Source of the DNA: an uncultured Clostridia bacterium
GTDB lineage: Bacteria; Bacillota; Clostridia; TANB77; CAG-508
NCBI GenBank assembly: GCA_944389475.1
Contig: CALXMM010000003.1
Location: forward strand, 64,847 to 128,846
DNA: 64,000 nt
Reading direction: 5' to 3'
The notes below the pieces were generated by a model. The model did not search any database. It was not told where the DNA came from and saw only the letters and a program-made list of their open reading frames with translations. Shown one piece after another: positions 20,562-55,093 of the stretch (positions are counted from its first letter, which is position 1; every line of letters begins with the position of its first letter). Position numbers and translations under genes: made by a program.

Positions 20562-23500
20562 TTATTTTTTATCTTTATGTCTCTTTGTTAAAACTACTGC
20601 GTATCTTAATGTTACACTTTCTAGGACTACTAATATTGCTAATACAAATAGTAAACCTGTTGGGAACTCACCTGTTTCTACACTTATTATAGCAGTTGCT
20701 TCATCCGTATTATCCTTATCATTTTCATCTTTAAATCCTGGTACATTATCTGTTTGTATTAATGAAACTTCATTAACCTTATTACCCATATTTTCTCCAG
20801 AGCCTTTCCAGTTTAATAATACTGTGTATTCTTTGGTTTCTCCACCTTTTATTTCTGGTATTACCTTTCTTAAGGTTCCATTATTTTCTTCCCATGTTCC
20901 ATCATTATGCGCTAAACTCATTCCTTCTGGTAATTTATCTTCTATAATTGCCCTTCCTTCTACTTTGCTAGTATTAATTACTTTTATCTTATATTCTATT
21001 TGTACACTTGTATTCTCTGTACTCTTTCTGTAAATTTCAACTCTCTCTAATTTTCCATTAGTAGCAGACCTTCTATTACCATTTATTATTATTCCTGTTA
21101 TTTCTTTCTCTACTCCTAAATTAAATGGCTTTGGTTCATAATAATAGTATAATTCAATTGTATTATTTACTATATCTTTATCATCTTTATCCTTGGTAAT
21201 TTCAACTTTCATTTTACCACTACTATCTTTAGGACTTTCTACTAGAGAATAATATTCAAATTCTTTTGGATTTGTAGTATATTCATCATCTTTTTGTCCC
21301 TCAAGTATTACTTGACTATTTTGCAATTCACCTGTCTTAGAATTTGTTTCTTCTATCTCTTTTCCTGTTGTTTTATCCACAAAATGTACAATTACTTTTG
21401 CAGGTTGATAATAATAATAATTTACTACTATCTTATCTTTAGTCATTTTTCCTTTAGCATTTGCTGGTAGGATGTTGTTTCCATTTTTATCAGTCTCTGC
21501 TACTGCATAGCTTAAGAATTCTTTAGGTTTAATATCATATAAATCTCCAATATGTCCTTCTTGTAATGTAAGTGGTTCCAATTCTTCACCACTTAGAATA
21601 TCTATATGATGTACCTCAACGCCAGTAGACTTCTTCGCATAATAGTATGTTACAACAGTTCTATTATTTGTAATATTACCCTGTTCATCTGTTTCAACAG
21701 CTAATATTCCATTAGCATTTGATGATACATCTACCAAATCGTAATCTTCTATACTCCTTTGTTCTGTTGTATAACTATCACCTTCATGCTTTGTATCATC
21801 AACTATTTGCTCTGCCAAAGGTTCACCTGTTTCTCTATCTATGTAATTAACTTCTAGCACTGCCTTTTTAATGTAATAGTAATTTACCGTTACAGCTTCT
21901 TCTCCTATGGTTCCTTTGTTATTTTCCGGAAGTTTATTTTCTACTAAATCATATCCCTCAAAATTTTTGCTAGATATGTTATAGTTATCTCCAACTGGAA
22001 CATTATGTTCTTCTGTGTACAATATTTTACCCGTAATATCATCGATATGGTTCTCTAATAATTTTGTCTTAATCTTCTCATAGTAATAAATTAGGGTTTG
22101 TTCTTCTTTTGTCATTTTTATTTTTGTCTTTTCAGGACTTTCTACCAATTTATATCCTTGGAAGTTCTTTGAATTCGTAACAAATTCATCTCCAACTAGT
22201 CCTTCCTTTGTATATGGAGTTTCTAGGTCTTTGATAATTTGATGTGTTTCCGAATCTCTTTCCACATATCTTACTGTTGCTCTTGTATTTTGTAGATAAT
22301 AATAAGTTACATTTGTGTCTGCAACAGTCATGTTTCCTTGAACATTTCCACTTTTAGAAACTAATGTATATGTTTTACCATCTTTTTCTATTTTATCTTT
22401 CTTATGCTCTGTATCTGTATTATATTGGTCATCAACATGTCCATCAATTTGCTCATTATTTGCTAATACTTGGTTATTACCATCATTATCATCTAAGTCT
22501 TTTTCTATATAATGTATTATTACTTTTGCTGGTTTTAATCTATAATAATAGGTTACTTCCTGTGGTTTTTCTTCATTATATTTTTCTAAAATTCCTTCTG
22601 AATTTCCTACTGTTGCATCTTGAACCAACTCATATTTTTCATTAATATTTTCCGCTGGTTTAGCTTTATAAGGCTCTCCTTCTTTTCCTTCTATTACTTC
22701 ATCTTGAATTTCTTGACCATCAGTACCTATTACTTTATTTGTAGTTTTTGTACCATCTAAATTCATGATGTAATGATGTACAGTAACCTTTCCATATTTA
22801 TTTGTATTTGTAACTACTCTTCCTGTATTATCCACTGTAGCACTATAGTAAGACAAATCTCCATTTATCTCTGTTACAGTATACTTAATCTCTTGGTTAT
22901 TAACATCATATTTTGGTAAATTTGTAAATATATCATTCCACTTATTTGGATTTGTACTATCCTGTGTTGTTGTAGTACCCTTTGTTCCTGGTTTTGCTAA
23001 TTCCATGGTTCTTTCACTACCATCACTACCTTTTAGTTTAAAGACTACTTTTGTTGGACGTTGTCCAAGTTTATTATCTTCATCTTCCCAAACTTTGCTT
23101 ACTGGTATATTTACTATAAATCCTGTTGTAGTTGTACATTTTGCTGTTACCTCATCACCTATTCTTTCCGGTGTCTCATATTCTATATGTGCATTAACAA
23201 TATTTTCGATACTTACCGTGTTTTGAGTTATTCCTTGGTATACAACTTTAATTTGTTTATTAATTGATACTTCTTTTGTTTCTGTTAACTGCATACCTTG
23301 AACTTCCTGTTCCCAGGTAATTGTTTTGTTTAAAGCATCATATGTTCCACCATCTAATTCAGATTTAGTTTCATCCAATGCATATGGTAATTTGTCAACT
23401 AGTACAACTTTAGCTTTTCCTTCATAATCACTAATTTGTGTAAAATAGCTTATATTGTATGTTATTTCTTGGTCTAAATTTTCTATTGCAGATGTTCCTG

Positions 23501-26500
23501 TCATAGATATTTCTGGATTATCCTTTGGCTCTACATATGTATGTTGCAATTCTTCTGGAATTTTTTCATCCTGTCCATTAGTATTTATATACACTATATT
23601 TTTAAGTATTGTTCCATCCACCAAAGTATTAACTATAACTTTAAACTCTACGATAACTTCAAAATTAATTCCTACTGCAACATTTATTCCATTTTGTAAA
23701 TCCAAAGCAGTCTTACTACTATCTGCAATATCTCCAACTTTTATAGAACCATCTACAAATGTTGTTCCTGTTGGTATTACATCTTTTACAAGTGCTGTAC
23801 CATCTCTTGTTCCATCATTCTTTAACTTAATTCTATATGTAATTGTATCTGATTCTCTAACTTTACTACCATTTGCTGGGTCAGATTCTTGTTTTGCTGA
23901 TATATTAGCTTTTGTAACATTTGTTATAACTTCATTTGTTTGCTTATTATCAACACTAGCCACATTCTTTAATGCTTTAGAATATTCTCCCTCAGCTAAA
24001 TCATCTACAATTCCTGCAAATACTACATCAACTGTAGTAAATTCTGGAACATCCACCTGTATTCCACTCTTTAAGTTTTCTTCTGTATATGAAGTACCAA
24101 TATTTCCAACTTTTATTTGTGTAGAGCTATCAAAACTCATTCCTTCTGGTAAACTATCTGCTAAAGTTACTGTTTTACCTAGGTTACCAGTATTTTTAAT
24201 TCTTACTGTATATGTTACTTTATCTTTCTCAGAAGTTTCTGTTTTATCTACAAATTTTTCTGCACTAATTATTGGTTTGTAAATAGTACTTTCAAAATTA
24301 TTGCTTGCTTCCTTACTTATCCTTTCTGGAGTTAGCAATTTAATATGTCCTTTAACATTGTTTGTTATTTTTTCTTGGTTCATATCTAAACCAACATAGA
24401 ATACTTTAATATTCTTTGTTATATTAACTGTTCCTTTACCATTATAACTATTTAAGTTTGATACATTTTCTGCCCAAGTTATTGTCCTATCTGTTTCGTT
24501 ATATGTTCCACCATCTAAGTCATTTGATTTACTTGTATCTAGTGCATATGGCAATGTATCTATTATTGTTACCTCTGCATTTCCAATATAATCATTTATA
24601 TTGGCATTATATGTAATTGTATAATTCATTTCCTGATTTGCAGATGTAATTTTATCTGTTCCTGATTTTTCTATGGTATTAGTTCCTGAAGGATTCTTTA
24701 AGCGATAATAATATATTACCTCGGTATCCTCCTTCGTTATTTCTCCAGTTTTATTATTAGGTATTCTTTCTTGTACCAATTCATAATTTTGCATAATATT
24801 TCCTGCAGGGTTTGTTGTATATTCTTCACCTTGAGCTCCTTCTATAATATCATCCTGCACTTCTCCACCATCAATACTTGGTACTTTTGTTGTTGTAGTT
24901 ATACCATTATCATCCATAATGTAGTGATGTACTATAACCCTTCCATAAACACTTATATTCGTTACTGTCTTAGAAATTTGGTCAATACTTCCTTTTTTGT
25001 AGAATTTATTTCCTAAGTCCTCTTCATCAACAGTATAGATTATGTCATTACCATAGTTGTCCAATCTTGGTAAATTATTAAATGTATATGTCCAAGTATT
25101 ATTATTTGATGGGTCTGCATTTTGTGAGGTTAATTCTTGTTTATAAGAAGTATTTACACCCTCACCAGTTCCTCTAAGTACCATTATTACTGAGCTTGAA
25201 CGTTTTCCTTTAGAATTTTCATTATCATCCCATACCTTAGCTACAGGTACTGATATTCTTTCATCCGGTACTACAAATTTATTTGATATTGTATAACCAG
25301 AATTCATATCTCCAGAAATAATCTTGTTTTCTGCTGTATAGAATTTATCATTCAAGTTCTCTTCATCTGCTGAGTAATTTATTATATTACCTTTTTCATC
25401 ATATTTTGGAACACTGAATGTATATTGCCATCTGTTTTTATCTCCATTTACCGCATTCTTTTCGGTTACTACTTCTGATGCAACTATTCCACTTTCATTC
25501 TTAACTTGTAGTGTTACACTTGCGGGTCTCTTTCCTGCAATATCTCCATTATCATCCCATACCTTTGTTACAACTATATTTGCTTTATCTCCAGGTACCT
25601 GGAATTTATTTGTTACAGTTCTTGTCTCTTGATTAAGATTAGATTTTATATAGAATATACTTTCTATATCTTTTTCGTTTATTGTATAAGATATTTCATC
25701 ACCATAATCATCATATTTTGGTAAGTTTGTAAATGTATATTCCCAAGTATTCTTATCTTCGTTAATAGCATCATCTTCTGTTACCTTTTCTTCCTTAGAA
25801 ATATTTACTCCTTCTCCAATACCTGTAACAGTTAATATTGCACTATCCGGACGTTTCTCTGCAAAATTTTCATTATCATCCCATACTTTTTTAGCTGTAA
25901 CAGATACTGTTTCATCCGGTACACTAAATGTATTTGTAATTGTTCTAGTTTGTTGGTCTACACTTGTAATATAGAATTTGCTATTTACATTTTCTTCATT
26001 TACTGAATATGTAATTTCATCTCCATTTACAGAATTATATTTTGGTAATTCCATAAATGTATATGTCCATTTATTTGAATCTGTATCATCAACATTATCC
26101 TTAGTTAAGGAATTTCTATATGGACCACTTCCATCACTTGCTGTTACAACTATATCTATGCTTGATGGACGTTTATTAGCAATATTACCATTGTCATTCC
26201 AATCAATTGTTACTGGAATACTTATTTTATCATTTGGTACTTTAAATTTATTTGTAATTGTCTTTGTGTCTTGGTCTATATCACTATTTAAATTTGTATA
26301 ATAAATATTTTCCAATTTTTCACCTAACAAATATTCTATTTCATCACCATTTGCATCATATTTTGGTAAATCACTAAATGTATATGTCCAATGATTATTA
26401 TTAGATGGGTCTGCATTTTGTGAGGTTAATTCTTGCTCATAAGAAGTATTTACACCTTCACCAGTTCCTCTAAGTACCATTGTTAAAGAACTTGGACGTT

Positions 26501-29500
26501 TTTCTGCAGAATTTCCATTATCATCCCATACTTTTGTAACTGGTACAGAAATCCTTTCATCAGGTACTTGGAATGTATTTGTTACAGTCTTAGTTAATTG
26601 ACTAACACTTGATGTGTAGAATTTGCTATTTTCTTCTTTGCTCTCCTCTTCTGCAATTGTATATTCTATTTCATCACCCATGCTATCCAACTTTTGTAAG
26701 TTTGTGAATGTATATTCCCAAATATTTTGATTTTCTACTGCATAACCGCTATTTAATACCACTTCTTCTGTTTTACCATTTCCACTTATAGAAATTGTTA
26801 CAGAATTTAAACGTTTACCTGCACGGTTATTATTATCATTCCATACTTTATTCACTGTTACTTGTGTTCTTTCATCTGGAACCTCAAATTTATTTGTTAC
26901 AGTCTTTTCTTCTTGGTTTATTACTGTATTAGCTCTTGTATAGAATTTGTTTCCTAAGTCTTCCTCACTTAATGTATATATTATTTCATCTCCATTTACA
27001 GAATTATATTTTGGTAAATCTGTAAATGTGTATAGCCACTTATTTCCATCATTTAAATCAGCATTATGTCCACTTAATGTTGCTTTATGTGGATTGCTTC
27101 CATCATTTCCTGTTAATACTAAAACAACATCATCAGGTCTCTTATTAGCTATATTATTGTTATCATCCCATATTTTAACAACAGGAATTGTAATTTTATC
27201 TGTAGGAACTTTAAATGTATTAGTTATAGTTTTTGTATCTTGTTCCACTTTACTATTTTCAGGTTTATAGTAAATATTGTCTAATTTTTCACTTAATACA
27301 TAATTAATTTCATTCCCCTTTTCATCTAAGTTTGGTAAATCTGTAAATGTAAATCTCCAAATATTTTCATTTGATGAATCAACATTTTCAGTTGTTAACT
27401 CTTCTTCATAAGAGCTATCTACACCTTCACCGATTCCTTTAAGCTTCATAGTTACTGAGCTTGGACGTTTTCCTGCAAAATTATTATTGTCATCCCATAT
27501 TTTTGTAACTGGTATAGAAATTCTTTCATTAGGTACTACAAATTTATTTGTAATTGTATAACCGGATTCCATATTTCCATCAATCACAGTATTCTCTCTT
27601 GTATAGAATTTATTTTTCAAATTCTCTTCATCTGCTGTATAAGTTATAACATCACCATTTTCATCATATTTTGGAACATTAAATGTATGACTCCATTTAT
27701 TTTGGTCTCCATTTACCGCATCATCAATGGTTACTGCCTCGGAAGCAACAACCTGATTTCCATTTTTTACTTGTAATGTTGCACTTGCGGGACGTTTTTC
27801 TGCAAAGTTATTATTATCATCCCATACTTTTGTAACAACAACATCCACCTTATCACCCGGAACATGGAATGTATTCGTTATTGTTCTTGTTTCCTGATTA
27901 ACATCAGATTTTATATAGAATATACTTTCTATATTTTTTTCGTTTATTGTATAAACAACTTCATCACCATTGTTATCATATTTAGGTAATTCTGTAAATG
28001 TATATTCCCAAGTATTATCATCACCAGCAACTCTATTTGATAATGTTATTTCTTGCTCTTTAGAAATATCTACTCCTTCCCCTTTTCCTGTAAGAGTTAA
28101 TATTGCTGTTTCAGGACGCTTGCCAGCAGAATTGCCATTATCATCCCAATACTTTTTAGCTGTTACAGTTATTTTTTCATCAGGTACACTAAAAGTATTT
28201 GTTATAGTTTTACTAGTTTGGTCATAACTTTCTACATAAAATTTATTATTATCTTCTAAACTTCTTTCCTCACTTACCTGATAATCTATTTCTTTTCCAC
28301 TTTCATCATATTCTGGTAAGTCTATAAAAGTATATTCCCAATTATTTTCATTTTCAGCAACAGCATTTATACTACTAATAGGTTGCTTATATGTCTGTCC
28401 ATTTCCAGTTAATACTAATGTTACTGAATTTGGTCGTTTACCTGCAGAATTTCCATTATCATTCCATACTTTTGTAACCTTTACATCTTTTAAGAATTCT
28501 GTTGGAATATCCTTTGTATTTTCAACAGTATTTGTTTTTTCAGGTGTTTTTAAATTCAATGTGCCTGTAACTTTATTTGTTACACTTGCTTTTGTTACAT
28601 CTAAATTTTGGTATACTAAACTAATATTCTTAGTTACATTTATTTGTTTTTCTCCATTTGCAAAAGTATCTATTCCTGTAATACTTTCTGTCCAAGTAAT
28701 TGTATTAGTATTTTCATCATAATTTCCATCATTTAGGTTTGATTTTTCTTTATCTATTGCATATGGAAGTGTATCCACAATTATTACTTCTGCCTCACCA
28801 ATATATGTATCCACATTTGCTGAATATGTAATACTATATGGTACTGCTTGGTCTTTTTCTGTCACCTTTTCCAAAGTACTAGTTTTATCTATTTTACTTT
28901 GTTCAATTGTTGGCTCTTTTAATTTATAGTAATAAGTTACAACTATTTGTTCCAAAGTCATTGTTCCATTTGAATTTTTAGGCAAGTTTTCTTCTACAAC
29001 TTCATAGTTATTTGCTACATTTTCAGATTCACTTGTATTATATGTATCTGTTACTCTTCCGTTAATTAGCTCATCTTCTACAACTCCACCATTCTTTGAT
29101 GGTACATTAATATCTGTTCCATCAATGTAATGATGTACTAATACACTTGCAGATTTTAGCCTATAATAATAAGTTACCTCTATTGTATCTTTCTGTATAA
29201 TTCCACTTGTTTCACCTTCTGTTGATACAAGTTCATAGTTTTCGCTTACATTATCTGCCTCTTTTGTAGCATATATTTCTCCTACATTTCCTGTTTGTAC
29301 TACATCTTCTACAACTCCATTAGAATTATTTGGTACATTTGTATTTGTATCTTCTATATAATAATGTGTTATTACTGTTCCTTTTAATCTTGCATTTGAA
29401 ATATTTAATGTTACAATATCATTTTCTCTTGAAACACTAAATTCACTTACATTATTTTCTGGTAATTTATAACCCTCTGGAACCTCAATCTCAGTTGCAA

Positions 29501-39419: not shown

Positions 39420-39614
39420 TTTATGTGCCTCCTTTACATTTATTGTAACATGCATTTATTGATATGTCAATTTGAAGATGTTATTACTAAATAATTTAGT
39501 CTTGCTAACATTAATTTAAATGAAAAAGAAACATCTATTATTAAGTGTTTGCTTTAATTTTAAAACTTGCACTTTAATAGATGTTTCTAATTTCATTATG
39601 CTCATATTAATTTA

Positions 39615-40892: not shown

Positions 40893-41030
40893 TGGCTTTT
40901 TCAAAGATTTCATACTTTTAAGGCTTTTCTTATTACAATTTTCGTAATTTATAAATTTTATATTATAAAAAGTACCTACAAAGTATTTCTACTCTATAGG
41001 TACTTAATCTTTTCTTTCGTATATCTAACA
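40893..41030. repeat. Direct repeat copy B flanking the ATPase/Rpn cassette
   Basis: See copy A. The identical 34-nt core lies at 40970-41003, and the similarity extends about 75 bp to the left and about 28 bp to the right. Confidence 0.6.
40966..41003 (-). terminator. Terminator hairpin of giant gene 2 (copy B)
   Basis: Same hairpin as 37955-37988, about 90 nt after the gene 2 stop, followed on the minus strand by TTTTTA. Confidence 0.6.
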
Positions 41031-44000: not shown

Positions 44001-47000
44001 TAGTCTGTTATATGTGCTGTGTAATTTATGTTATATGTTATCTCATCATCTAGACTATCTGTTGTTGCTGTTCCTGTCTTAGATATACTTTGTTCTTCTT
44101 TTGGCTCTACATATGTGTGCTCTGGCTCTTCTGGAACTTTTTCATCTTCTGGATTTTCTCCTGGTTCATCACCTGGATTTCCTGGGTTATCAGTATCTTT
44201 ATTTATATATGCTGTATTCTTTATTGTTGTTCCATCTGCCAATTTATTTACTCTTACTTGGAACTCAACTACTTTTTCTTCATTTATTCCTAATGTTACA
44301 CTTATTCCATTTTCTAAATCTTCAGCTGTCTTTGTTAAATCTTGTAATTCTCCTATTCTTACTGAGTCTTCTACAAATGTTGTTCCTTCTGGCACTTTAT
44401 CTTTTACAAGTACTGTTCCAGCTCTTGTTCCATCATTTCTTACTCTTATTCTGTATGTTATTGTGTCTCCTTCTGTTACTTTTGTTCCACTTACTGGGTC
44501 TGATTCTTTATGTGCTGTAATATTTGGTTTCGTTACTGTTGTTGTTACTTCATTTGTTGGTTCATTATCCAATGTTGCTTTATTCTTTAATTCTTTACTA
44601 TATGTTCCTTCTGGTAATGTATTTACTATTCCCGCAAATACTACATCAACTGTACTATATTCTGGAACTTCTACTTGTATTCCATTCTTTAAATTTTGCT
44701 CTGTATATACTGTTCCTGTACTTCCAACTTTTATTTGTGTACTACTATCAAATGTTAGACCTTCTGGTAATGTATCTGCTAATGTTACTGTTTTAGCTAA
44801 GTTTCCATCATTCTTAATTCTTACTGTATATGTTACTTTCTCTCCTTCTTGTGCTTCTGTCTTATCAACTATTTTCTCTGCACTTATTATTGATTTATAT
44901 ATTGTGCTTTCAAAGTCATCATTTGTTTCTTCACTTGTTGTTTCTGGAGTAAGTAACTTAATACTTCCTCTTACATTGTTTGTTATCTTTTCTTGGTTCA
45001 TATCTAAACCAGTATAGAATACTTTAATGTTCTTAGTTATATTAACTGTTCCTTTGACATTATAACTATCTAAGTCTGATACGTTTTCTGTCCATGTAAT
45101 TGTATGCTTTGCTGGGTCATAGTTTCCGCCATCTAGGTCGTTGGCTTTGCTTGTATCTATTGCATATGGCAATGTATCTACGATTGTTACTTCTGCATTA
45201 CCTATATAGTCTGTTACATTTGCATTATATGTTATAGTGTAATTTACTTCTTGGTCAGGTGCTGTTATTCTCTCTGTACCAGTCTTTTCTATTGTGTTTG
45301 TTACTGTTGGTGTTTTTAGTTTGTAATAGTATGTTACTACTATTTGTTCCAATGTCATATTACCATTTGCATTTGCTGGATTTTCATTTACAACTTCATA
45401 GTTATTTGCTATCTCTGTTGATGGATTTGTTGTATATGGTGAATTTACTTGTCCATCTATTAATTCATCTTCTACTACTCCACCATTTTTATTTGGTACC
45501 TTGGTTTCTGTTGTTGTTCCATCTAGGTTCATAATATAGTGGTGTACTAATACATTTGTAGGTTTTAGTTTGTAATAGTAAATTACTTCTATTGTTCCAT
45601 TTTGTATCGTTCCACTTGTTTCTCCTACTGTTGAGACATACTCATAATTTTCGCTTACATTATCTGCTTGTTTTGTTGCATAGATATCTCCTACATCTCC
45701 TGTTTGTACTACATCTTCGACTACTCCACCATCTTTATTAGGTACTTTTGTTTCTGTTGTTGTTCCATCTGAATTCATAATATAGTGGTGAGTTATTACC
45801 GTTCCTTTAATTTTAGTATTTGTTATATCTAATGTTACTTGGTCTTGTCCTTTTGTTACACTAAACTCTGTCGTATTATTTTCTGGTATTTGGTAACCCT
45901 CTGGTACTTCTGTTTCTGTTGCAATATAGTCTCCTGATTCTAAATTAGTTGCTATTTGTCCGTTAGAATCTGTTGTGTAAGTTCCAATTATTGTTGTTGG
46001 AGTATCCTTATCTGCAATTGTAAATTTAACTCCTGCAAGTGGTGTTTTTCCATCTTCTGCAAATTTGTTTATTACAAGTGGTCTTACAACTTTTTTATAA
46101 TAATAGGTTACAACTACTTCTTCTCCACTATATGTTCCTTCTGCATTTGAAGGTGTTTCTACTAATTCGTAATCATCACTTAATTTGTCTTCCTCAATTG
46201 CATTTGTTATATATGGTTCATTTTCTTTTCCACTATCGATTACATCTTCTGCTACTCCACCATCTTTTAATGGTACTTTCTCTGTTGTTCCTTCTATATA
46301 ATGATGTACTGTTAGTGGTATATCCTTTGTTTCGTAATAGTAGATTACTTCTATTGTCTTACCAGATTCAAAATCTCCTGTTGCATTTTCTGGTAGTACA
46401 TAGTTTCCTTCTCCATCTTTTTCTAGTTCATATTCGCTTAAGTCTAATTTTGGATTTGTTGTATATTTTTCTCCATTCTTTCCTTCTACTAATTCATCTT
46501 CTGCTACTTTTGTTGTTGTATAGTTTCCTTCATTATCTTTTAAATAATGATGTACTATTACTTTTGCAAGTTTATTATTTTCTATTGTAAACTCATGATT
46601 TCCATCTGCTCTAAATTCTACTACAACTGGTTCACTATTTAACTCATATCCTTCTGGTGCTGTAACCTCTGTTATTTGGTATTTTCCAAATGGTATTTGT
46701 GTTATAGCTTGTCCTTCACTATTTGTAGTTACTTCTGTATGATATAGTTCTGAATCATTTAAAGTAACTTTTACACTATTTACAGTAAATTTATCATCTC
46801 CTGTTGATGTACTAGCATTTTTATAATATCCAAGATGTAAATAATACATTTGTCCACCTTGTAATACTGTTGTATAGTCTTGTGCATCTTGCTCTCCAGA
46901 TATATAGACAAATCTTCCTGTACTACTGCTATATGATGGTGCAGTTGTATTACTTGTTACTGTTGCATATCCATAATCAGAACTACTTTGACTTGATACA

Positions 47001-50000
47001 TCTGCATTTACTGTTAAGTTATATTTTCCAGTATAATTTGTTAAATCTATTGGGATATATGAATTTGCTACTGTGCTATCTTGTCCTTGGTTATTTGATT
47101 CATATCCTCCTGAACTATTATCTACAAAGTTATATGTAGAACTATTTGCTTCATAGACTTTTATACTATTGATAACTATTTGGTCTTCTCCTGAATCTAT
47201 ACTAACATCTTTATGATAACCTAAATGTAAGTAATATGTTTTACCTCCTTCTAATACCTTTGATGTATAATCTTTCGCAGTTGTTACACTACCATATGTT
47301 CCTGATATATACATAAATCTTCCTGTACTACTACTATATGTTGGTGCTGTTGTACTTTGATTTATTGTTGCATATCCCGAATCAGATCCTTCACTTGATA
47401 CACTTGCATTTACCACTACTACATACTCTCCAGATTTACCACTTAAGTTTATTGGAATATATGAGTTTGCTGTACTACTTTGAATTCCAGCACTTCCACC
47501 ATTTGCAAGTTGATATGTTTTACTATTTGTTGGAACATATGCTCCATCTTCATTTTGTACGAAATAGTATGTTCCATTATTTGTTAAATCACCTAATACT
47601 CCTGTTACTTCTCCTTTTTCTGTATCTGTTTCTACATACTCTTGTCCATTTGCTACTATATCTCCTATAATTTCATCATTATCTGGGTCTGTCCTTTCCT
47701 CTAATTGGTCTAACTTAAATGTTGCTCCTGCTAATTTCTTACTATTATCTTCACTATCTACTTTATTTATAACTATTTTATTATCTTTTAAAGCATATGT
47801 TACTACTACATGCTTATCTTCTGTCATGTTTGTAAATTGTGGCATTTTATATCTTCCATCTTCATTTTCTTCAAATGGCCATTCTTTTCCATTTACTGTT
47901 ATTCCTATTATTTCATAGCCACTATCTGGTGTCATTACTATTTCTTTAGTACTACTATCTCCATATTTAACTTTATCATATGAAGTCATATCTTCTCCAG
48001 AAATACTTCCACCTTTTACTCCATCTATTTCATTTACATCTGTTGTTATATTAAATTCTTTTCTACTATTTTCTACTGTTAGCTCTTGAACCTCTGGAAC
48101 TCCTACTTGATTTGCAACCTCAAGTATCATTCCATCAGAAGTTGTCTCAAAAATTGATGTAGAACCACTATTATTTGTTAATGTATAATCATCAACATTT
48201 ATAGTAGAACTATTAAAATATCCTCCTGCAATGACACCTCCATCACTTGTTACTACTACTGATTGGATATCATCATTACTACTTCCTCCAAAGCTTTTTG
48301 CCCATTCCACTTCGCCTTGACTACTATATTTTATTATTAAACCATCATCACTACCTTTACTTATTAATATTTCATTTCCTACTTGGATTGAGCTACTAAA
48401 ATATCCTCCTACTAGGATTCCTCCATCACTGGTTGACGCTACTGATTCTATATAATCAGAACCACTTCCTCCAAATGATTTTGCCCATTCTACTTTTCCC
48501 TCGCTATTGTATTTTATTATTAGGCAATCATAAGAATATGTAAAACCATTATTTGTTAATGTTTCATTTCCTACTTTAATTGTACTACTATAGAAATATC
48601 CTCCTACTAGGATTCCTCCATCACTGGTTGACGCTACTGATTCTATATAATCAGAACCACTTCCTCCAAATGATTTTGCCCATTCTACTTCTCCTTCGCT
48701 ACTATATTTTATTATTAGACCATCTGAACTACCATTATTTGTTAATTGATAATCTCCTACTTGGATTATATTCTCAGAATATCCTCCTACTAGGATTCCT
48801 CCATCACGCGTTGATGCTACTGAATTGATATAATCATTATAAATTCCTCCAAATGAATCTGCCCATTCTACTTCGCCTGTGCTATTATATTTTATTATTA
48901 ATCCATCATTATCGCCTTTATTTGTTAATTGATAATTTCCTACTTGAATTGTATCACTAGAGAAATATCCTCCTGCGATGGCACCCCCATCACTTGTTGC
49001 TGCTATTGATTGGATTCTATCATCATTACTTCCTCCAAATGATTTTGCCCATTCTACTTCACCTGAGCTATTGTATTTTATTACTAAGCCATCATAATAT
49101 GATGTCGAACCATTATTCTTTAATGTTATTTGACCATTTATGCCTTCTAGTTGGATTGTACTACTTCTAAAATATCCTCCTACTAGGATTCCTCCATCAC
49201 TGGTTGACGCTACTGATTCTATATAATCAGAACCACTTCCTCCAAAGCTTTTTGCCCATTCTACTTGTTTATCCTTATTATATTTTATAATCATTGCATC
49301 ATAATATGATGTCGAACCATTATTTCTTAATGTTATTTGACCATCTATGCCTTCTAGCTGGATTGTACTACTTCTAAAATATCCTCCTGCTATATAGCCT
49401 CCATCGCTTGTTGCTGCTATTGATTGGATTTCATCATCATTACTTCCACCAAATGAACTTGCATTAGTAACAACGGGATTAACAATTTCTTGTTTTTCAA
49501 ATTTAATAATTAATCCATCACTTCCATTAGGAATTAATGTTTTATCTCCAACTTGAATAGTACTATTGAAATATCCTCCTACTATAACATCACCATTCGT
49601 TAATTCAGATATACAATTATAAATTCCATAACTTGATGTTGTTGCATATTCTAATTCACCCATGCTATTTAATTTTAATAAATGTCTGCCTCTAGTAACT
49701 ATTTTGTTATTTAATTTAAATTCAGAGAAAATTCCATTTACTAATATTCCTCCATCATTTGTTGAGATTACTGTGTCGATTTGATTATTACTACTTCCAC
49801 CAAATGATTTTGCCCAATCCACTTCTCCTTCTGAATTATATTTTACTATTAGCGCAGTATCTATACCATTATTTGTTAATTGATAATCTCCAATTTGGAT
49901 AGAAGAACTATTTGTGAAATATCCTCCTATCAGTATTCCTCCATCATTTGTTAATACACTAGAATTAATAGTAATATTGTTATTATCTAGTATAGTTTTT

Positions 50001-53000
50001 GCCAAAAGTACCATACCTTGTGAATTGTATTTTATTAGATAATTACCTGCAGTTAATGTTTGGTCTCCTACTTGCATATCACTCTTAATATTTCCTGTAA
50101 CAATGATACCTCCATCACTCGTTGGTGCTACTGATAAGATATAATCATCATCACTTCCTCCAAATGAATCTGCCCATTCTACTTCGCCTGAGCTATTGTA
50201 TTTTATTATTAGGCAATCAGAATCTCCATTACTTGTTAATGTTTCATTTTCTACTTGGATTGTACTACTTCCGAAACGTCCTCCTACTAGGATTCCTCTA
50301 TCACTGGTTGGTGCTACTGATAAGATATAATCATCATCACTTCCTCCAAATGAATCTGCCCATTCTACTTTTCCCTCGCTATTGTATTTTATTATTAGGC
50401 AATCATAAGAATATGTAAAACCATTATTATTTGTTAATGTTTCATTTCCTACTTGGATTGTACTACTTTGGAAATATCCTCCTGCTATATACCCTCCATC
50501 ACTGGTTGACGCTACTGATAAGATATAATCATTATCACTTCCTCCAAATGAATCTGCCCATTCTATGTCTCCTTCACTATTGTATTTTATTATTAGGCAA
50601 TCAGCATCATTGCTACTATGATTTGTTAATGTTTCATTTCCTACTTGGATTGTAGTACTTTCGAAATATCCTCCTGCTATATAACCTCCATCACTCGTTT
50701 CTGCTACTGATTCTATATAATCATAATCACTTCCTCCAATTGAATCTGCCCATGTTGCTACCATTCCTTCTTTTGGCTCTCTAGAGGAACCTATACCAAA
50801 ATAGTATACACTATCAGATATATCGTATTTTTCTGGTGTTTCTACTTCTACAGCTTTATATAATCCTTCTGTTAAGTCTGCTGTTAATTCTCCGTTTTGG
50901 TCTGTAGAAACTGTGTAGTATTCTCTTCCATTTATTGTTTCTTTTGTTCCAACGATTTCTCCTTTACTATTTGTTGCAGGTACCTCTCCATTGTCTACAT
51001 TGTATATTGCAAATTTAACTCCTGCTAATGTTGCTCCTGTTTCTGCATCTTTCTTAATTAATTTAAATGATGGGCTATCTTCTATTGTTAATTTTACTGT
51101 ATTTCCTTCTACTGTGTATTTCTCTTCTATTCCGTCCATGTTTAATAAGCTTAAAGTATTATCTTTATTTTCTACTTTAAACCTTATATCTTTTACCTTT
51201 GCATATCCTTCTGGTGCTAATACTTCCTTTAATGTATATGTTGCTTCTTCATCTTTTCCTTCTATGTATTGGTATAAATTATCTATTGTTACTGTTCCAT
51301 TTCCGTCTGTTATATATTCTCCTATTTCTTCATCATTTTTATATAATTTAAATTTTGCTCCTGATAAATATGTTACTTCTGTATCTGCTAATGCTGTTTC
51401 TGCTTTTGCTTTTAGTTCATCATCACTTACTGTTGCTTCTGTTGTTTTCTTTACTTTTATTATTTGTAAGCTATATGTTGGTATCTTCTCATCCTCTATG
51501 TTTAATGTAATTGTTGGTATACTATCTTCTTCTGTTGTACTTTGGTCTTTTATTGTTCCACTTGTTGTTTGTATAATATAATTTCCATCATTGTTTACTA
51601 TTTTAAATGTTATAGGGTCTGCTAAATAATACCCTTCTGCTTTTGTTTCAGTTAGAGTATATTCTTGGTTAATAGAAAGCCCACTTATTGTAGCCTCTCC
51701 ATTTATATTTGTTGTTACTGTTCTTCCATTTTCAGGTAGGTTATATCCTGTTAATTTATATCTTACATTTTGTATAAGCGTATCTGTGCCTTGTTCTTTC
51801 TTAACAATTTTTATACTTGCTTTTACTTCATCTTCTACTTTTACAGTTACTCTGTAATCTTCTCCTTCTTCCTTAACTACAGCCATATCTTCTTTTGTTG
51901 TTCCACTTGTTTTCTCTATTGTAAGATTTCCTTCATCATCTACATGACCAATAAACCTAATAACATCACTATTTAATTCATAGTTATCAGGTGTTTTCAT
52001 TTCTGCCAATATATATGCTTTTTCCGCATATAGTCCATTTATAGTTAACATTCCTTGTGCATTTGTTACAGCTGTTCTAATTTCTCCTGTTTCCAAATCC
52101 ATAACTCCATATGTTGCACTAGGAATTACTTTATCTTTTCCTGTTTGGTATTTTGTTAATTCTAAATTATATTTCTCTGCAATTCTAAATCCTAATCTGT
52201 TAGGCTCTGTTTGTGTTCTATACTTTCCTTGGTCTGTATCTAAGCTAAAGTATACTCCATGATGACTGAAAGATACTTTATTAAACTCTAATCCATTTGG
52301 TATCTTTACTGTGTAATTAAATACATATTCTTTTCCTGTTGGCATTATGTAAGCACCAAGGTCTATTAAATATGTTTTAACATTATCCCAATCTGTTACT
52401 TCTTCTGCTGTTTTCCATCCATTTTGTTCATCTGTTAGGTCTCTATCTGGATTCTCATTTTCAGAATAATACACTGTTGCATATTGTTGCAATTCTTCAG
52501 GTATTTGTATTCCTGCTTCTGTCATCTTGGTTGTAAATGTTGAACCTAAGTCTCCTCCACTTATTACATATGTATTTCCTTCAAATGGTATCTTTCCTAA
52601 TATTTGTATATCACTAATTGTACTTCCATAATTATTTCTTACTTGTACTCCTATTGTTGCTTCTTTCTCTTCTCCTTCTTGGTCTACTACTCCATAAACT
52701 GGCTTTATATCTGCAACTTCTGGTGATACTACTTGACTTCCTTTATCATCATAATTACTTCCTATTTGGTTTGTTAATAATGAGTTTGGTGATACCATGC
52801 TTAAACTTACTGTATCATGGTTTACTTGTTCATCTATATTTAAGTTGTCGTTTACATCATAAACATCGCTTGCTTTGTAATAATAGTCACATGTTTCTTC
52901 ATTAGATGCATATAACTCTATATCTCTACTCATTGTTGCTACTCTTGGGTCTGGAGTTATATCCACATCTATTGTTATGCTATATGTTTGTGGTGTATCA

Positions 53001-55093
53001 TTATTATTCTTTGTGTTTATCTTTATTAGTTTTGCTCCATCTTGCTCTATAATTTCATAGCTAACTAATGAAACTGCACTGTTATTTATTTGTACATCAT
53101 TTATTTGGGCATCTATTATTTCTTCTGGTAGTTTTACTACAAAACTTCCATCCACCCATCCTACTTGGTTGCTTGAACTGTCATTTCTTGCTGTTATTGT
53201 TATCTTTTCATTTTTTTCTGTTATTTGTGTTGATATTGTATTATTGCTTATTCCTATATCTGCTATTGAATATGGTGCTTCATAATTTGCTTGGTGTGTG
53301 TCTGTATTAATATATCTTCCTCCAAGATATCCTACTAATGTAGATTTTATATATTGTAATTTGTCAAACTCCTCCCTGGTATAGTTTGTTGTTATATATT
53401 CATCATCTAATTCTTTAATGTTATATACTGTTAAATAACTATTTGCGTTTGTATCACTTGTCTCTATTCTTATATGTTTTACTGGTAGTTCATATTTATA
53501 TGAATTACTTGCTGTATACTTGCTCCAATCAGATTTTGTAAATGTTACTAATAAATCTCCTGTTTCTTCATCATATACTTTTATCCATCCATCATCTTTT
53601 AAGATGCTATCTGCCCCTGAAAATGCTATTCCAATATTTGTTGTTACATCTTCCATACTTTCTTTATTTGAATCTGTCTTTATGAAATTGTCTGTAACTT
53701 GTGATTTATCATTTTCAGTTTCTTTCATTACTAATCCTGTAGAAGTTCCATCAGTTCCTGTATATGCCTCCCATTTTACTTGGTATATATCGTCTTCTCC
53801 CATATCGCTTAATCCATTGTATATTTTTAATGGTTTTTCTTTTGAAATTATATATCTATAACTTGGATAAAATACATATTTTCCTACTGTTACATCGAAT
53901 CTTGCTACTGAGCCTTGCATTTTTCTATAGTTTGCTACTATTGTTGCACTTGCTACATTTGATTTATATGGGTTTGTAAATTCTGAACTTGTGTTGTTAT
54001 ATCCTTCGTAATATGTGCTTACTGGTATTCTTAATGTTACTGTGTCTTCTCCTAAACTTTGATATGCTTCTATTGGATATACTACTTTTACACTGTATGA
54101 ATTATCTCTAGATACTCCACTTGTTACTGTTCCATCTTCTCCTACTTGTGTTTCTCTATCTATTGTAAGCACTTTTGTCTCTTCATTATAATTTGCTGTA
54201 GCATTACTTCCTGTATATTCCACACTTATTGGGTCATATCCATTTAATTGTGGGATTGTTGCTTCTACATGGTTTTTCTTTAATATTAATTCATCTTCTG
54301 TTTCCTCTGTTATTATAGAGAAGTTCAATGTTATTGTTCCGTTTTCTTCATCTAGTCTGTCATCTAAATCATAATATGTGTTATAGCTATTGTTTGTATA
54401 TATACTTGCTCTTGCTGTTCCGTACCAATCTATATTAAAATTAACTGTTTTTGTTATAGGTGTTTCTACTCCATCTTCTCCAACATATGTTCCTGTTAAT
54501 GTTACTGTATTTAGCTTGCTATAGTTATTTATATTATTTCCTATGGCTGCATTTTCACGTGATGAATAAGAATAGTCTCCACTTCTAACTATTCCTGTTA
54601 ATAACTTTTGCGTTCCATTCTTTAAATCATTAAATTCTATTACCTTTGTGTTATTTCCTACATAACTATCTTTTAACTCATTATCTTTTGGTAATGCTGT
54701 TTGGAAATAGAAATTATTACCATCACTCATTGTTATCTTGGCATCTTTTAGATATCCTGCTGTTTGAACATTTAATTCCATGTACAAGGTATCCTCTTTT
54801 CCTATCTCTCTACTTGTTCCTCTTATGCTCTCTGCATTTCCATCTCCATCTAAGTCACGTAAAAAGAAGGCATCAAATTTAACGTGGCCATCTGTTCCAT
54901 CCACGTTTTCTTCTCCTTCCTGTACTTGGTCATATTCCATTGCTTTTGCTAGTTCTGGATTTGCCTTTGCAAAATTCTCTTTTTGCTTGTTAACTTTAAC
55001 AACAACCATAGTTATTATTAATGCTACTATTATCGCTATTACTCCGACTAGCAATCCTATCTTTCTCTTCATTCCCTTTTGCATATTTTCCAT
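41096..55093 (-). CDS. Giant (4665 aa) multidomain cell-surface protein, paralog of 20562-37673
   Basis: Unbroken 14.0-kb ORF, collinear with gene 1. By eye the head, C-terminal MucBP run and sorting signal are about 70-85% identical at aa level. It lacks the 11x Cna_B block but carries a unique duplicated insert of about 320 aa. The C-terminus has SVETGEF, a hydrophobic segment and a KRQKKNNKK tail. Confidence 0.9.
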   Translation of the reverse strand: MENMQKGMKRKIGLLVGVIAIIVALIITMVVVKVNKQKENFAKANPELAKAMEYDQVQEGEENVDGTDGHVKFDAFFLRDLDGDGNAESIRGTSREIGKEDTLYMELNVQTAGYLKDAKITMSDGNNFYFQTALPKDNELKDSYVGNNTKVIEFNDLKNGTQKLLTGIVRSGDYSYSSRENAAIGNNINNYSKLNTVTLTGTYVGEDGVETPITKTVNFNIDWYGTARASIYTNNSYNTYYDLDDRLDEENGTITLNFSIITEETEDELILKKNHVEATIPQLNGYDPISVEYTGSNATANYNEETKVLTIDRETQVGEDGTVTSGVSRDNSYSVKVVYPIEAYQSLGEDTVTLRIPVSTYYEGYNNTSSEFTNPYKSNVASATIVANYRKMQGSVARFDVTVGKYVFYPSYRYIISKEKPLKIYNGLSDMGEDDIYQVKWEAYTGTDGTSTGLVMKETENDKSQVTDNFIKTDSNKESMEDVTTNIGIAFSGADSILKDDGWIKVYDEETGDLLVTFTKSDWSKYTASNSYKYELPVKHIRIETSDTNANSYLTVYNIKELDDEYITTNYTREEFDKLQYIKSTLVGYLGGRYINTDTHQANYEAPYSIADIGISNNTISTQITEKNEKITITARNDSSSNQVGWVDGSFVVKLPEEIIDAQINDVQINNSAVSLVSYEIIEQDGAKLIKINTKNNNDTPQTYSITIDVDITPDPRVATMSRDIELYASNEETCDYYYKASDVYDVNDNLNIDEQVNHDTVSLSMVSPNSLLTNQIGSNYDDKGSQVVSPEVADIKPVYGVVDQEGEEKEATIGVQVRNNYGSTISDIQILGKIPFEGNTYVISGGDLGSTFTTKMTEAGIQIPEELQQYATVYYSENENPDRDLTDEQNGWKTAEEVTDWDNVKTYLIDLGAYIMPTGKEYVFNYTVKIPNGLEFNKVSFSHHGVYFSLDTDQGKYRTQTEPNRLGFRIAEKYNLELTKYQTGKDKVIPSATYGVMDLETGEIRTAVTNAQGMLTINGLYAEKAYILAEMKTPDNYELNSDVIRFIGHVDDEGNLTIEKTSGTTKEDMAVVKEEGEDYRVTVKVEDEVKASIKIVKKEQGTDTLIQNVRYKLTGYNLPENGRTVTTNINGEATISGLSINQEYTLTETKAEGYYLADPITFKIVNNDGNYIIQTTSGTIKDQSTTEEDSIPTITLNIEDEKIPTYSLQIIKVKKTTEATVSDDELKAKAETALADTEVTYLSGAKFKLYKNDEEIGEYITDGNGTVTIDNLYQYIEGKDEEATYTLKEVLAPEGYAKVKDIRFKVENKDNTLSLLNMDGIEEKYTVEGNTVKLTIEDSPSFKLIKKDAETGATLAGVKFAIYNVDNGEVPATNSKGEIVGTKETINGREYYTVSTDQNGELTADLTEGLYKAVEVETPEKYDISDSVYYFGIGSSREPKEGMVATWADSIGGSDYDYIESVAETSDGGYIAGGYFESTTIQVGNETLTNHSSNDADCLIIKYNSEGDIEWADSFGGSDNDYILSVASTSDGGYIAGGYFQSSTIQVGNETLTNNNGFTYSYDCLIIKYNSEGKVEWADSFGGSDDDYILSVAPTSDRGILVGGRFGSSTIQVENETLTSNGDSDCLIIKYNSSGEVEWADSFGGSDDDYILSVAPTSDGGIIVTGNIKSDMQVGDQTLTAGNYLIKYNSQGMVLLAKTILDNNNITINSSVLTNDGGILIGGYFTNSSSIQIGDYQLTNNGIDTALIVKYNSEGEVDWAKSFGGSSNNQIDTVISTNDGGILVNGIFSEFKLNNKIVTRGRHLLKLNSMGELEYATTSSYGIYNCISELTNGDVIVGGYFNSTIQVGDKTLIPNGSDGLIIKFEKQEIVNPVVTNASSFGGSNDDEIQSIAATSDGGYIAGGYFRSSTIQLEGIDGQITLRNNGSTSYYDAMIIKYNKDKQVEWAKSFGGSGSDYIESVASTSDGGILVGGYFRSSTIQLEGINGQITLKNNGSTSYYDGLVIKYNSSGEVEWAKSFGGSNDDRIQSIAATSDGGAIAGGYFSSDTIQVGNYQLTNKGDNDGLIIKYNSTGEVEWADSFGGIYNDYINSVASTRDGGILVGGYSENIIQVGDYQLTNNGSSDGLIIKYSSEGEVEWAKSFGGSGSDYIESVASTSDGGILVGGYFYSSTIKVGNETLTNNGFTYSYDCLIIKYNSEGKVEWAKSFGGSGSDYIESVASTSDGGILVGGYFSSSIQVGNEILISKGSDDGLIIKYSSQGEVEWAKSFGGSSNDDIQSVVVTSDGGVIAGGYFNSSTINVDDYTLTNNSGSTSIFETTSDGMILEVANQVGVPEVQELTVENSRKEFNITTDVNEIDGVKGGSISGEDMTSYDKVKYGDSSTKEIVMTPDSGYEIIGITVNGKEWPFEENEDGRYKMPQFTNMTEDKHVVVTYALKDNKIVINKVDSEDNSKKLAGATFKLDQLEERTDPDNDEIIGDIVANGQEYVETDTEKGEVTGVLGDLTNNGTYYFVQNEDGAYVPTNSKTYQLANGGSAGIQSSTANSYIPINLSGKSGEYVVVVNASVSSEGSDSGYATINQSTTAPTYSSSTGRFMYISGTYGSVTTAKDYTSKVLEGGKTYYLHLGYHKDVSIDSGEDQIVINSIKVYEANSSTYNFVDNSSGGYESNNQGQDSTVANSYIPIDLTNYTGKYNLTVNADVSSQSSSDYGYATVTSNTTAPSYSSSTGRFVYISGEQDAQDYTTVLQGGQMYYLHLGYYKNASTSTGDDKFTVNSVKVTLNDSELYHTEVTTNSEGQAITQIPFGKYQITEVTAPEGYELNSEPVVVEFRADGNHEFTIENNKLAKVIVHHYLKDNEGNYTTTKVAEDELVEGKNGEKYTTNPKLDLSEYELEKDGEGNYVLPENATGDFESGKTIEVIYYYETKDIPLTVHHYIEGTTEKVPLKDGGVAEDVIDSGKENEPYITNAIEEDKLSDDYELVETPSNAEGTYSGEEVVVTYYYKKVVRPLVINKFAEDGKTPLAGVKFTIADKDTPTTIIGTYTTDSNGQIATNLESGDYIATETEVPEGYQIPENNTTEFSVTKGQDQVTLDITNTKIKGTVITHHYIMNSDGTTTETKVPNKDGGVVEDVVQTGDVGDIYATKQADNVSENYEYVSTVGETSGTIQNGTIEVIYYYKLKPTNVLVHHYIMNLDGTTTETKVPNKNGGVVEDELIDGQVNSPYTTNPSTEIANNYEVVNENPANANGNMTLEQIVVTYYYKLKTPTVTNTIEKTGTERITAPDQEVNYTITYNANVTDYIGNAEVTIVDTLPYAIDTSKANDLDGGNYDPAKHTITWTENVSDLDSYNVKGTVNITKNIKVFYTGLDMNQEKITNNVRGSIKLLTPETTSEETNDDFESTIYKSIISAEKIVDKTEAQEGEKVTYTVRIKNDGNLAKTVTLADTLPEGLTFDSSTQIKVGSTGTVYTEQNLKNGIQVEVPEYSTVDVVFAGIVNTLPEGTYSKELKNKATLDNEPTNEVTTTVTKPNITAHKESDPVSGTKVTEGDTITYRIRVRNDGTRAGTVLVKDKVPEGTTFVEDSVRIGELQDLTKTAEDLENGISVTLGINEEKVVEFQVRVNKLADGTTIKNTAYINKDTDNPGNPGDEPGENPEDEKVPEEPEHTYVEPKEEQSISKTGTATTDSLDDEITYNINYTAHITDYEGNAKIVLVDQLPYEIDTTKTNILEDLDGGTYDAASKTITWEQPVENIQMTEGREVTINKQIKVVYTGISQDTLSIKNNIKAHIEYETPDRTSEEVTANWPTTTGFIVNIPVSKIWDDSDNKLGQRPTRVVFKLTGSDGSVRTLDVAKPGTANTTTTQDSENPNKWNDIFTDLPKYDANKQEIVYTLTEEQKTDGDLKYYDSVVTDKTVTNTNKYGKVTVHHYVMNPDGSTTETRVPDKEGNEVQDEIIEGKEGDPYETEPADNVNEKYELVQEKLPEKPDGTIEKYDEEKPQEVIYYYRLKPAKVIIHYLEKDSDDNDGNNLVLSDNEQIDGHVDDQYNTDTEHKKDTITKDGKTYTLVSNSGNTQGTMTVADTNVTYYYLQNTKATVRYVEGNPETGEIVKDLETPRTEEGLVGDEFVTNSKEFTGYKLIQSPNPTTINMTKEEQTLIYWYEPVYTGLLENHIDDKTGKILYTEEHEVQVGDSYNIPSKNFVGYDLVTTKLPNNASGTMGEELVTVNYYYIKKAVLEVNYIDKETGEPLTDQIVDDTKHEGDPYTTEQKTFEDFDLVEVPSNKDGTLTVETDENGNITNNKTVVTYYYVRKAVVEEHHIDIVTGEELAEPTIYNGHVGDEYTTSAKEFLSYELVTEDKDGNNMLPTNAQGTMTKDKIVVNYYYNQPAKVIVHYVDRTTGRELEENNPETGELQSSQVIIEGYKDDDYTTTPKDFEYYKLVESPKEPNGKMKVEITKDENGKDIVNNTKDVYYYYEPKPFNIGVEKDISAIIVNGERRNATNGKLEKVDIYRKSTENTSVQVEYKIKVMNTGEISGRAIVEDKLPEGMTLANNDGTWEVSSVNAAESGETTIRKVIPEIGAGETKEYTVLLNWKTSGNNMGNKVNEVALTETDNVPGFKDSNDKDNTDNATVSISVETGEFPVGLLIALVALVGLESVTLRYAVVLTKRQKKNNKK
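48125..50757 (-). repeat. Two tandem seven-blade SBBP-type propeller repeat sets (gene 2), with near-identical DNA repeats
   Basis: 7 + 7 blades, split at KFEKQEIVNPVVTNASSFGG (about 49490). Identical stretches of at least 70 bp start at 48403, 48597 and 49172. A repeat of about 90 bp occurs at about 50133 and 50320. Confidence 0.75.

Follow-up and report, generated by a model that had tools for sequence, protein, structure and literature searches.

Fibrillar adhesins, as described by Monzon et al. (PMC9210967), form a class of large surface proteins in which a stalk of repeated domains is combined with a surface anchor and an N-terminal gap in the domain annotation. In that work, the N-terminal gaps gave matches of the immunoglobulin (Ig)-like type, e.g. 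of the N-terminal region of cluster 11 to integrin alpha-X (PDB 4NEN:A), and N-terminal regions made up of stalk-like domains only were considered as possibly devoid of an adhesive domain. Periscope proteins such as SasG, Aap and Sgo_0707 (PMC8201768) are wall-anchored rods projecting an N-terminal region, and their repeats are near-identical at the DNA level and vary in number between strains. With regard to anchoring by clostridial class B sortases, C. difficile SrtB was shown to cleave (S/P)PXTG peptides in vitro, but not NVQTG, the motif of CbpA (PMC4155245). Here, we analysed a window of 64,000 nucleotides of contig CALXMM010000003.1 from an uncultured Clostridia bacterium, in which two giant genes, referred to as A and B, occupy 31 kb. 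We consider it likely that A and B diverged long ago as paralogues and belong to a large family without a name, which consists of giant surface proteins of the fibrillar type, most likely adhesins, and is found in uncultured low-GC gut Clostridia. At the level of the protein class, the designation as surface adhesins is well supported. The unnamed family is new and the general kind of protein, a giant fibre-like surface adhesin, is known.

Gene A (20562-37673; 5703 amino acids (aa)) and gene B (41096-55093; 4665 aa) are both located on the minus strand, as are all of their features given below, and each reading frame contains one terminal stop codon. At the GC content of the window of 29.5%, stop codons on the minus strand are expected at a frequency of 0.094 per codon, i.e. 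a chance open reading frame (ORF) would be about 11 codons long. Since the two frames stay open over 14-17 kb, chance is excluded and both frames must be maintained by selection. Comparison of the two proteins by BLASTP gave three collinear blocks, namely A1-2450 with B1-2465 (59% identity), A2453-3048 with B2784-3387 (63% identity) and A4246-5700 with B3181-4660 (70% identity). Relative to B, A has a surplus of about 1200 residues consisting of 11 tandem Cna_B domains (A3065-4240), none of which occur in B, and B in turn has a surplus of about 300 residues (B2465-2784) that includes two modules of about 90 aa (B2521-2741). The N-terminal head of B is 70-80% identical to the heads of proteins from other genomes and about 59% identical to the head of A, and the synteny with ftsH-tilS upstream of B has been retained at another family locus (L003). 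By these comparisons, A and B are old paralogues that have been maintained separately. The initial annotation of the window had described two unbroken minus-strand ORFs of these lengths, collinear and homologous to each other and distinguished by large module indels, all of which was borne out, including the exact coordinates. Its term head-to-tail tandem pair is correct with regard to the orientation, but the two genes are not adjacent, as two other genes lie between them in a 3-kb insert.

The modules of the two proteins were mapped using local hidden Markov models (HMMs) iterated from Pfam hits. In A, an N-terminal helix and the head (residues 44-965) are followed by five SpaA domains (971-1434), 14 propeller blades (1451-2318) and a module resembling InlB-B repeats (2345-2420), then by the series SpaA-MucBP2-SpaA-MucBP2, a module with the motif TLPYAID and the run of 11 Cna_B domains, and finally by MucBP, a TLPYA module, two DUF11, a further TLPYA module, Cna_B, seven MucBP, DUF11 and the sorting signal. 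The order in B is the same except that the Cna_B run is missing and two extra modules follow the InlB-B-like module. SpaA, Cna_B, MucBP, DUF11 and DUF7927 hits were obtained in both proteins, with Pfam scores above the respective cut-offs (SpaA 138 bits, Cna_B 411, MucBP 187 and DUF11 61), and the approximately 35 mapped copies of stalk domains (SpaA, Cna_B, DUF11 and MucBP) make up a rod-like region of repeated domains. The run of prealbumin-like SpaA domains (33372-34763 in A, 50783-52159 in B) matches Pfam PF17802 with E values down to 1e-40. Next to it, each protein carries 14 blades of the SBBP/delta-60 type (30720-33323 in A, 48107-50737 in B), arranged as 7+7 around a short linker (in A, blades 1-7 at residues 1451-1871 and blades 8-14 at 1883-2318). 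The blades, with the motif ...SDGGyivgGyf...DGlivKYn..GeveW, were recognised as 14 repeat units by the local HMM and can also be seen by eye, and their number together with the linker suggests that each protein contains two seven-bladed propellers. The NCBIfam model of the SBBP LipL53 lipoprotein matched the blades in seven stretches (E 1e-32) with 113.5 bits, i.e. below its equivalog cut-off of 400, and matches were also obtained with the NCBIfam delta-60 repeat and with the CylK propeller in PDB (E 4e-13), and none was reported for Pfam's own SBBP model. Using Tandem Repeats Finder (TRF), tandem arrays at the DNA level were detected in the blade regions only, with units of 183-198 nt and 75-85% identity. 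The InlB-B-like module (30414-30641 in A, 47792-48019 in B) gave a match to Pfam Flg_new_2 (E 9.7e-4) of 19.5 bits, compared to a cut-off of 23.6, and recurs throughout the family.

The Cna_B run present only in A (24954-28481) matches Pfam PF05738 with an E value of 7e-126. Its units are 37-69% identical to each other and yield no tandem array at the DNA level by TRF. The Lys, Glu and Asn columns are kept in 10 of the 11 units, the aligned segment of unit 10 ending before the Asn motif, and this pattern together with the PF05738 match is consistent with isopeptide domains, in which the respective bonds may form. The two modules found only in B (residues 2521-2741; 46871-47533), of about 90 aa each, are apparently inserted in a SpaA domain and share the motif …SYIPI.L…G.Y.L.VNA.VSS…GRF.YISG…YYLHLGY.K. 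By local HMM, the module occurs twice in B and is missing from A, and many family members have one to four copies. As neither Pfam nor PDB contained a relative to which these modules could be assigned, they represent an unannotated domain family. Towards the C-terminus, seven MucBP domains (residues 4984-5512 of A; 21138-22724 in A, 41702-43285 in B), which would be proximal to the cell wall, match Pfam PF06458 with E values of 2e-53 (A) and 7e-56 (B), bringing the total to 11-12 MucBP domains per protein. The modules with the motif TLPYA(I/L)D occur three times in A (residues 2937-3048, 4342-4453 and 4730-4839; 28530-28865, 24315-24650 and 23157-23486) and twice in B. They had been regarded as pilin-D2-like in the initial annotation, which we did not retain, as no pilin hit was obtained and one of the modules gave a sub-threshold DUF11 hit; from their sequence they appear to be divergent sandwiches of the DUF11/CARDB type, which current Pfam models mostly miss. 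The other modules proposed there, Cna-B/SpaA, MucBP and DUF11, all score above the Pfam cut-offs, the two propellers of seven SBBP-type blades agree with the 7+7 arrangement, from which the fold itself is deduced, and the proposed InlB-B-like module is present but stays below the cut-off of the only named model that detected it.

The N-terminus of A (residues 1-43; 37545-37673; 54959-55093 in B) comprises a basic start and a hydrophobic helix of about 23 aa, which is predicted to be an export signal or signal anchor; in the AlphaFold model, the helix spans residues 7-42. The following head of about 920 residues (A 44-965; 34779-37544 in A, 52175-54958 in B) had no relative in Pfam, NCBIfam or PDB sequences when residues 1-1000 of A were searched, and the matches of a profile of 59 family sequences against PDB were confined to the SpaA part. 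The alignment of these 59 sequences contains 42 invariant columns, invariant positions of the head include K212 and N359/N360, and the loop DLDGDG at residues 78-83 is almost invariant; we take it to resemble the DxDxDG loops that bind calcium. A transmembrane or signal anchor and a head of about 900 aa with such a loop and no assignment had been proposed before and were thus recovered. Using the 59-sequence alignment, AlphaFold produced a confident all-beta model of the whole head with about five beta-sandwich domains (predicted local distance difference test (pLDDT) 86.5), in which the tip (residues 44-365) is predicted as a pair of Ig-like beta-sandwiches (pLDDT 93.4, predicted template modelling score 0.85). 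Foldseek searches with the whole head and with residues 44-365 gave generic Ig-like chains only, namely integrin alpha legs, the N2N3 pair of SdrG, FnBPA and Bbp, antigen I/II C123 and the macroglobulin domains of alpha-2-macroglobulin and TEP, and a more specific fold was therefore not assigned, the searches against PDB having reached the SpaA part only. The model is compatible with an adhesin-like tip and points to no ligand.

In order to determine the distribution of the family, relatives of the head were collected from three sources. In a word-indexed protein database, the head found 160 proteins, 159 without a name and one 'hypothetical protein' from a metagenome-assembled genome of a Clostridia bacterium; since this search returned nothing longer than about 2060 aa, protein lengths were taken from genomic loci and a library of representatives. 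In a collection of species-representative genomes, 253 stretches encode relatives of the head, and 80 of these loci were kept and used for the analysis of hosts and copy number. They belong to assemblies of Clostridia from the gut of human, mouse, chicken, rabbit, goat and sheep, including two closed chromosomes of 1.55 and 1.70 Mb, and the assemblies carry three to six or more family genes of roughly 10-17 kb each. Complete frames have lengths of 3129-4353 aa, among them 4156 aa (L040) and 4223 aa (L043) in the closed chromosomes, and many frames exceed 4300 aa and run off the fetched locus. One relative's record is UMGS1994, a genus placed in Firmicutes_A in the literature, and some of the Clostridia carrying the family encode sporulation or germination genes. 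Lastly, an exhaustive search of 1.84 billion representatives gave 772 clusters, of which 388 had E<=1e-30, with lengths of up to 5786 aa and the head always N-terminal, at residues of about 45-960. For the architecture, 77 long members (2947 aa or more) as well as A and B were surveyed with the local HMMs. The common order is head, four or five SpaA domains, blades, InlB-B-like module, optional extras, SpaA/MucBP, Cna_B, MucBP run, DUF11 and C-terminal signal, with 0-14 blades detected (14 in the closest relatives) and 0-15 Cna_B domains. Hundreds of proteins from gut Clostridia assemblies, 3000-5800 aa in length, share the head, the twin propellers and this order. SBBP-type propellers as such are also found in proteins secreted by other phyla, including non-host-associated ones, where their partners are type IX secretion, dockerin and peptidase domains. 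On this sequence evidence, the combination of modules is not a one-off but the usual architecture of a family that is large and uncharacterised. The initial annotation had pointed out that the combination is not a described adhesin family, and indeed we found no paper describing it and no named family or model, the sources giving no names other than 'hypothetical protein' or 'MucBP domain-containing protein', but the combination is not unique, being typical of the family.

Like the fibrillar adhesins introduced above, A and B are very long and have a stalk of the Cna_B/SpaA/DUF11 type, a putative C-terminal anchor signal and, at the opposite end, a region without domain annotation; PDB 4NEN is also in the Foldseek list of the A head. 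Unlike these adhesins, A and B have no known adhesive tip domain, two propellers within the stalk, a C-terminal motif without LP and a head of an unnamed family, and their MucBP domains and propellers are candidates for an adhesive region. In lactobacilli, Mub-type proteins carry runs of MucBP in surface proteins of the LPXTG type, as known from gut Gram-positives. Unlike in these proteins, MucBP is one of eight or more module types in A and B, is located mainly near the wall end and is combined with a head and propellers that have no counterpart in the Mub type. With Periscope proteins, A and B share the layout of a rod projecting an N-terminal region, provided that they are anchored to the wall, and in both groups the number of stalk repeats differs among relatives, as seen from the 11 extra Cna_B domains of A and the 0-15 copies within the family. 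Repeats of the Periscope type were rejected for A, where the Cna_B units have 37-69% identity at the protein level and form no TRF array, and judged by this divergence the differences in length between A and B are old and not dynamic. With regard to the microbial surface components recognising adhesive matrix molecules (MSCRAMM) SdrG, FnBPA and Bbp, Foldseek likened the tip of the head (44-365) to their N2N3 pair with E of about 1e-6, but at a template modelling (TM) score of only about 0.23 and with no sequence similarity this is a resemblance in fold class only. Finally, the blades of A and B are similar in sequence to CylK (PDB 7fh6 and 7ron) and to SBBP/delta-60 proteins; unlike the propeller of CylK, a soluble enzyme, those of A and B would be part of a surface fibre and no catalytic role is implied. 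Sortase-assembled pilins were rejected as a model, as the TLPYA modules gave no pilin hit and the window contains no class C sortase.

Both proteins end with SVETGE-F-P, a hydrophobic segment of about 26 aa and a tail rich in K and R (20565-20684 in A, where the tail is KRHKDKK; 41099-41218 in B). This hydrophobic segment has an unusual length, and a Glu and an Arg within it are conserved. Thus, the two signals are of the same type, in line with the initial annotation, but their motif is SVETG in place of the LPXTG pentapeptide and no anchor HMM matches it. At the same C-terminal position, other family members carry [SA][IV]xTG, which is the commonest motif, IPxAG, xKTGD, or the canonical LPETG, LPATG or LPTTG, in each case ahead of a hydrophobic segment and of basic residues. 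This positional equivalence to canonical motifs is the main argument for reading SVETG as a sortase-type signal. Firmicu-CTERM or another named sorting domain was considered and dropped, as no NCBIfam hit was obtained and the literature was uninformative. Also rejected was a role in toxin delivery, as the proteins end in a signal of the sorting type and the sole toxin-like hit was insignificant (E 0.06). A class B sortase is encoded on the plus strand at 8912-9664 (NCBIfam TIGR03064 with 200.5 bits compared to a cut-off of 153.75, Pfam Sortase, catalytic motif TLSTC). Its gene is convergent with a minus-strand gene (9752-10672) for a secreted protein of 306 aa, which has a signal peptide and ends with NPHTGD, a hydrophobic segment and a K tail, and from their sequences the two are likely a pair of sortase and substrate. 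The enzyme is also a candidate for the anchoring of A and B. Like the clostridial class B sortase substrates, A and B come from a clostridial host with a class B sortase gene and combine an adhesin-type cargo with an xVxTG-type motif, a hydrophobic segment and a basic tail; unlike these substrates, they are more than ten times larger and their motif is of the type [SA][IV]xTG, with V instead of the P found at position 2 of NPxTx or (S/P)PxTG-like motifs.

The regions upstream of A (37674-37870) and B (55094-55290) were compared by alignment and with regard to promoter-like sites and complementarity to the Shine-Dalgarno (SD) sequence. The proximal approximately 190 nt are 74% identical (blastn), compared to a mean column identity of 71% over the whole intergenic alignment, in agreement with the homologous regulatory leaders noted in the initial annotation. 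The leader is shared by two relatives, L002 (9804-10000) and L104 (10154-10350). The latter was found in a pattern scan of metagenomes and was the only one of 51 matches located upstream of a family member, and nhmmer detected no further significant copies in the family loci searched. The scans flagged a shared promoter-like site, TTAATA-16-TA(C/A)AAT preceded by TG, with a conserved block AAAAA(T/A)GTAATAT farther upstream. Furthermore, each of the four leaders contains, 63-78 nt upstream of the SD, a C-rich segment with complementarity to the SD and the bases 5' of it, and the paired bases differ from leader to leader: CCCAAGAAA with the SD region TTTCTTGGG for A, CCCTCCAACA with TGTTGGAGGG for B, CCTTCAAAAA with TTTTTGGAGG for L002 and CCCAAAAC with GTTTTGGG for L104. 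The helix between the two appears in the minimum free energy folds of three leaders out of four and in the RNAalifold consensus, which is weak (-8.4 kcal/mol). We regard a possible SD-sequestering leader RNA as a lead and not as a finding, as it is based on four leaders with AT-rich flanks and no mapped start of transcription. A riboswitch in the leaders was rejected, as no Rfam family matched at the gathering level and no relevant hit appeared even at E<=1. The window also encodes a fusion of a response regulator with GGDEF, i.e. a diguanylate cyclase (2942-3868, minus strand). Cyclic-di-GMP is a frequent controller of adhesin expression in Clostridia, and no cyclic-di-GMP riboswitch was found in the leaders by Rfam.

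In the mechanism that we propose, each protein would be exported through its N-terminal hydrophobic signal and retained at the surface by the C-terminal SVETG motif, hydrophobic segment and basic tail, probably by transpeptidation to peptidoglycan, for which the class B sortase of the window is a candidate enzyme. The approximately 45 beta-sandwich and propeller modules would form a rod of about 150-190 nm, calculated with 3-4 nm per domain, in which the Cna_B run may supply the Lys, Glu and Asn residues of intramolecular isopeptide bonds. The MucBP domains would lie next to the wall, with the two propellers and the 920-aa head at the distal end, and host mucus, glycans or other cells may be the binding partners of head, propellers and MucBP. 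Paralogues with different modules would then also differ in reach and specificity.

Several observations weigh against wall-anchored adhesins. No LPXTG-anchor model (TIGR01167, PF00746) matches the C-terminus of A or B at the thresholds used, with valine at position 2 the motif is not a proven sortase substrate, the sortase gene lies about 11 kb from A, no sortase was found within 10 kb of the homologues in the fetched flanks, and the N-terminal hydrophobic stretch is long enough (about 23 aa) that it could stay as a membrane anchor. With regard to adhesion, no domain of known ligand specificity was found in A or B using Pfam, NCBIfam, PDB and Foldseek, and the Foldseek matches had low TM scores, namely 0.14 with the whole head as query and 0.19-0.44 with the tip. 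One alternative is that the same proteins are tethered to the membrane and not linked to the wall, SVETG being no sortase site and the C-terminal segment and/or the N-terminal helix acting as the anchor. The missing anchor-HMM hits, the NVQTG peptide left uncleaved by C. difficile SrtB in vitro, the long N-terminal helix and the unusually long C-terminal segment with its Glu and Arg all favour such a tether, whereas the canonical LPETG, LPATG or LPTTG of family members at the same position, the conserved tripartite layout of the signal and the class B sortase of the window, with a neighbouring gene product that carries a signal of the NPxTG type, speak for the wall. We consider the membrane tether unlikely, though a live alternative, and A and B as probably linked to the wall. 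Surface fibrils might also have a main role other than host adhesion, e.g. as a spacing or protective coat, in aggregation between bacteria, as biofilm matrix or in the capture of particulate substrates. The 11-12 MucBP domains per protein, the confinement of the family to gut-derived Clostridia among the records seen and the strong conservation of the head, which argues for a specific function of the distal tip, make this less likely still, even with a head that has no known host-ligand domain, SBBP-type propellers in many secreted proteins that are not host-associated, and the caveat that N-terminal regions consisting of stalk only may have no adhesive domain (PMC9210967).

The initial annotation proposed an alternative or variable surface display of A and B, which might be phase-variable; this idea is favoured by the shared leader, the presence of several paralogues per genome and the wide variation of modules in the family. 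We found this very unlikely, as the region of A and B contains no homopolymers of at least 9 A/T or at least 7 G/C, no convincing inverted repeats of the invertible-promoter type flank the two promoters, no recombinase gene is adjacent to A or B (the Rpn-like gene sits in the separate 3-kb insert), the Cna_B repeats have diverged (37-69% identity) and the paralogues are old, B being closer to its orthologues in other genomes than to A. We give almost no credence to an assembly chimera or decaying pseudogenes. It is true that blade repeats of 75-85% identity in DNA could mislead short-read assemblers and that several homologues end abruptly inside the propeller region (L001/L026 (OZ006978.1), L003, L008, L019, L044 and L063; proteins P0003, P0014 and P0016); in one HiFi chromosome, a family gene is broken up into three ORFs (1600, 309 and 1681 aa). 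These breaks could reflect misassembly at the blade repeats or real gene decay in the homologues. Against either in A and B stand the two frames open over 14-17 kb at 29% GC and a module order that is collinear with independent assemblies, closed chromosomes and proteins of up to 5786 aa.

Beyond the assignment of A and B as giant fibrillar surface adhesins, one could envisage that the head and the twin propellers form a new ligand-binding apparatus, that the family is the main colonisation factor of a clade of small-genome gut Clostridia with paralogues tuned to different host or dietary ligands, and that in one sub-lineage an SD-sequestering leader gates translation; we regard this extended scenario as doubtful. 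The family is of interest for its size and its spread among uncultured gut Clostridia, for a head and further modules that lack annotation, for its non-canonical sorting motif and for the possible leader RNA. Three to six or more genes of about 10-17 kb are a large investment for chromosomes of 1.5-1.7 Mb, and the family is a concrete candidate for gut attachment of these uncultured Clostridia. The head domains, the modules found only in B and the TLPYA modules are unannotated domain families for Pfam, and the motif [SA][IV]xTG may broaden the known range of sortase substrates. The current view of how Gram-positive surface proteins work is left unchanged by A and B.

Between A and B lie a gene for an AAA_14/DUF4143 ATPase (38112-39455) and an Rpn-family PD-(D/E)XK nuclease or transposase-like gene (39615-40475). 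This 3-kb stretch is flanked by a terminator-like hairpin of 50 nt, repeated at 37952-38001 and 40968-41017 with 90% identity. The presence of the repeat on both flanks suggests that the two genes were inserted between formerly adjacent A and B. The ATPase matches the phage-defence candidate PDC-S01 of PADLOC (E 3e-170). Other genes of the window encode YpeB, SleB, YabG, DnaB, FtsH, TilS and ProRS, a content compatible with the chromosome of an endospore-forming clostridium. The sole RNA gene detected in the window by Rfam and ARAGORN is a tRNA-Arg (TCT) on the minus strand at 11408-11484.

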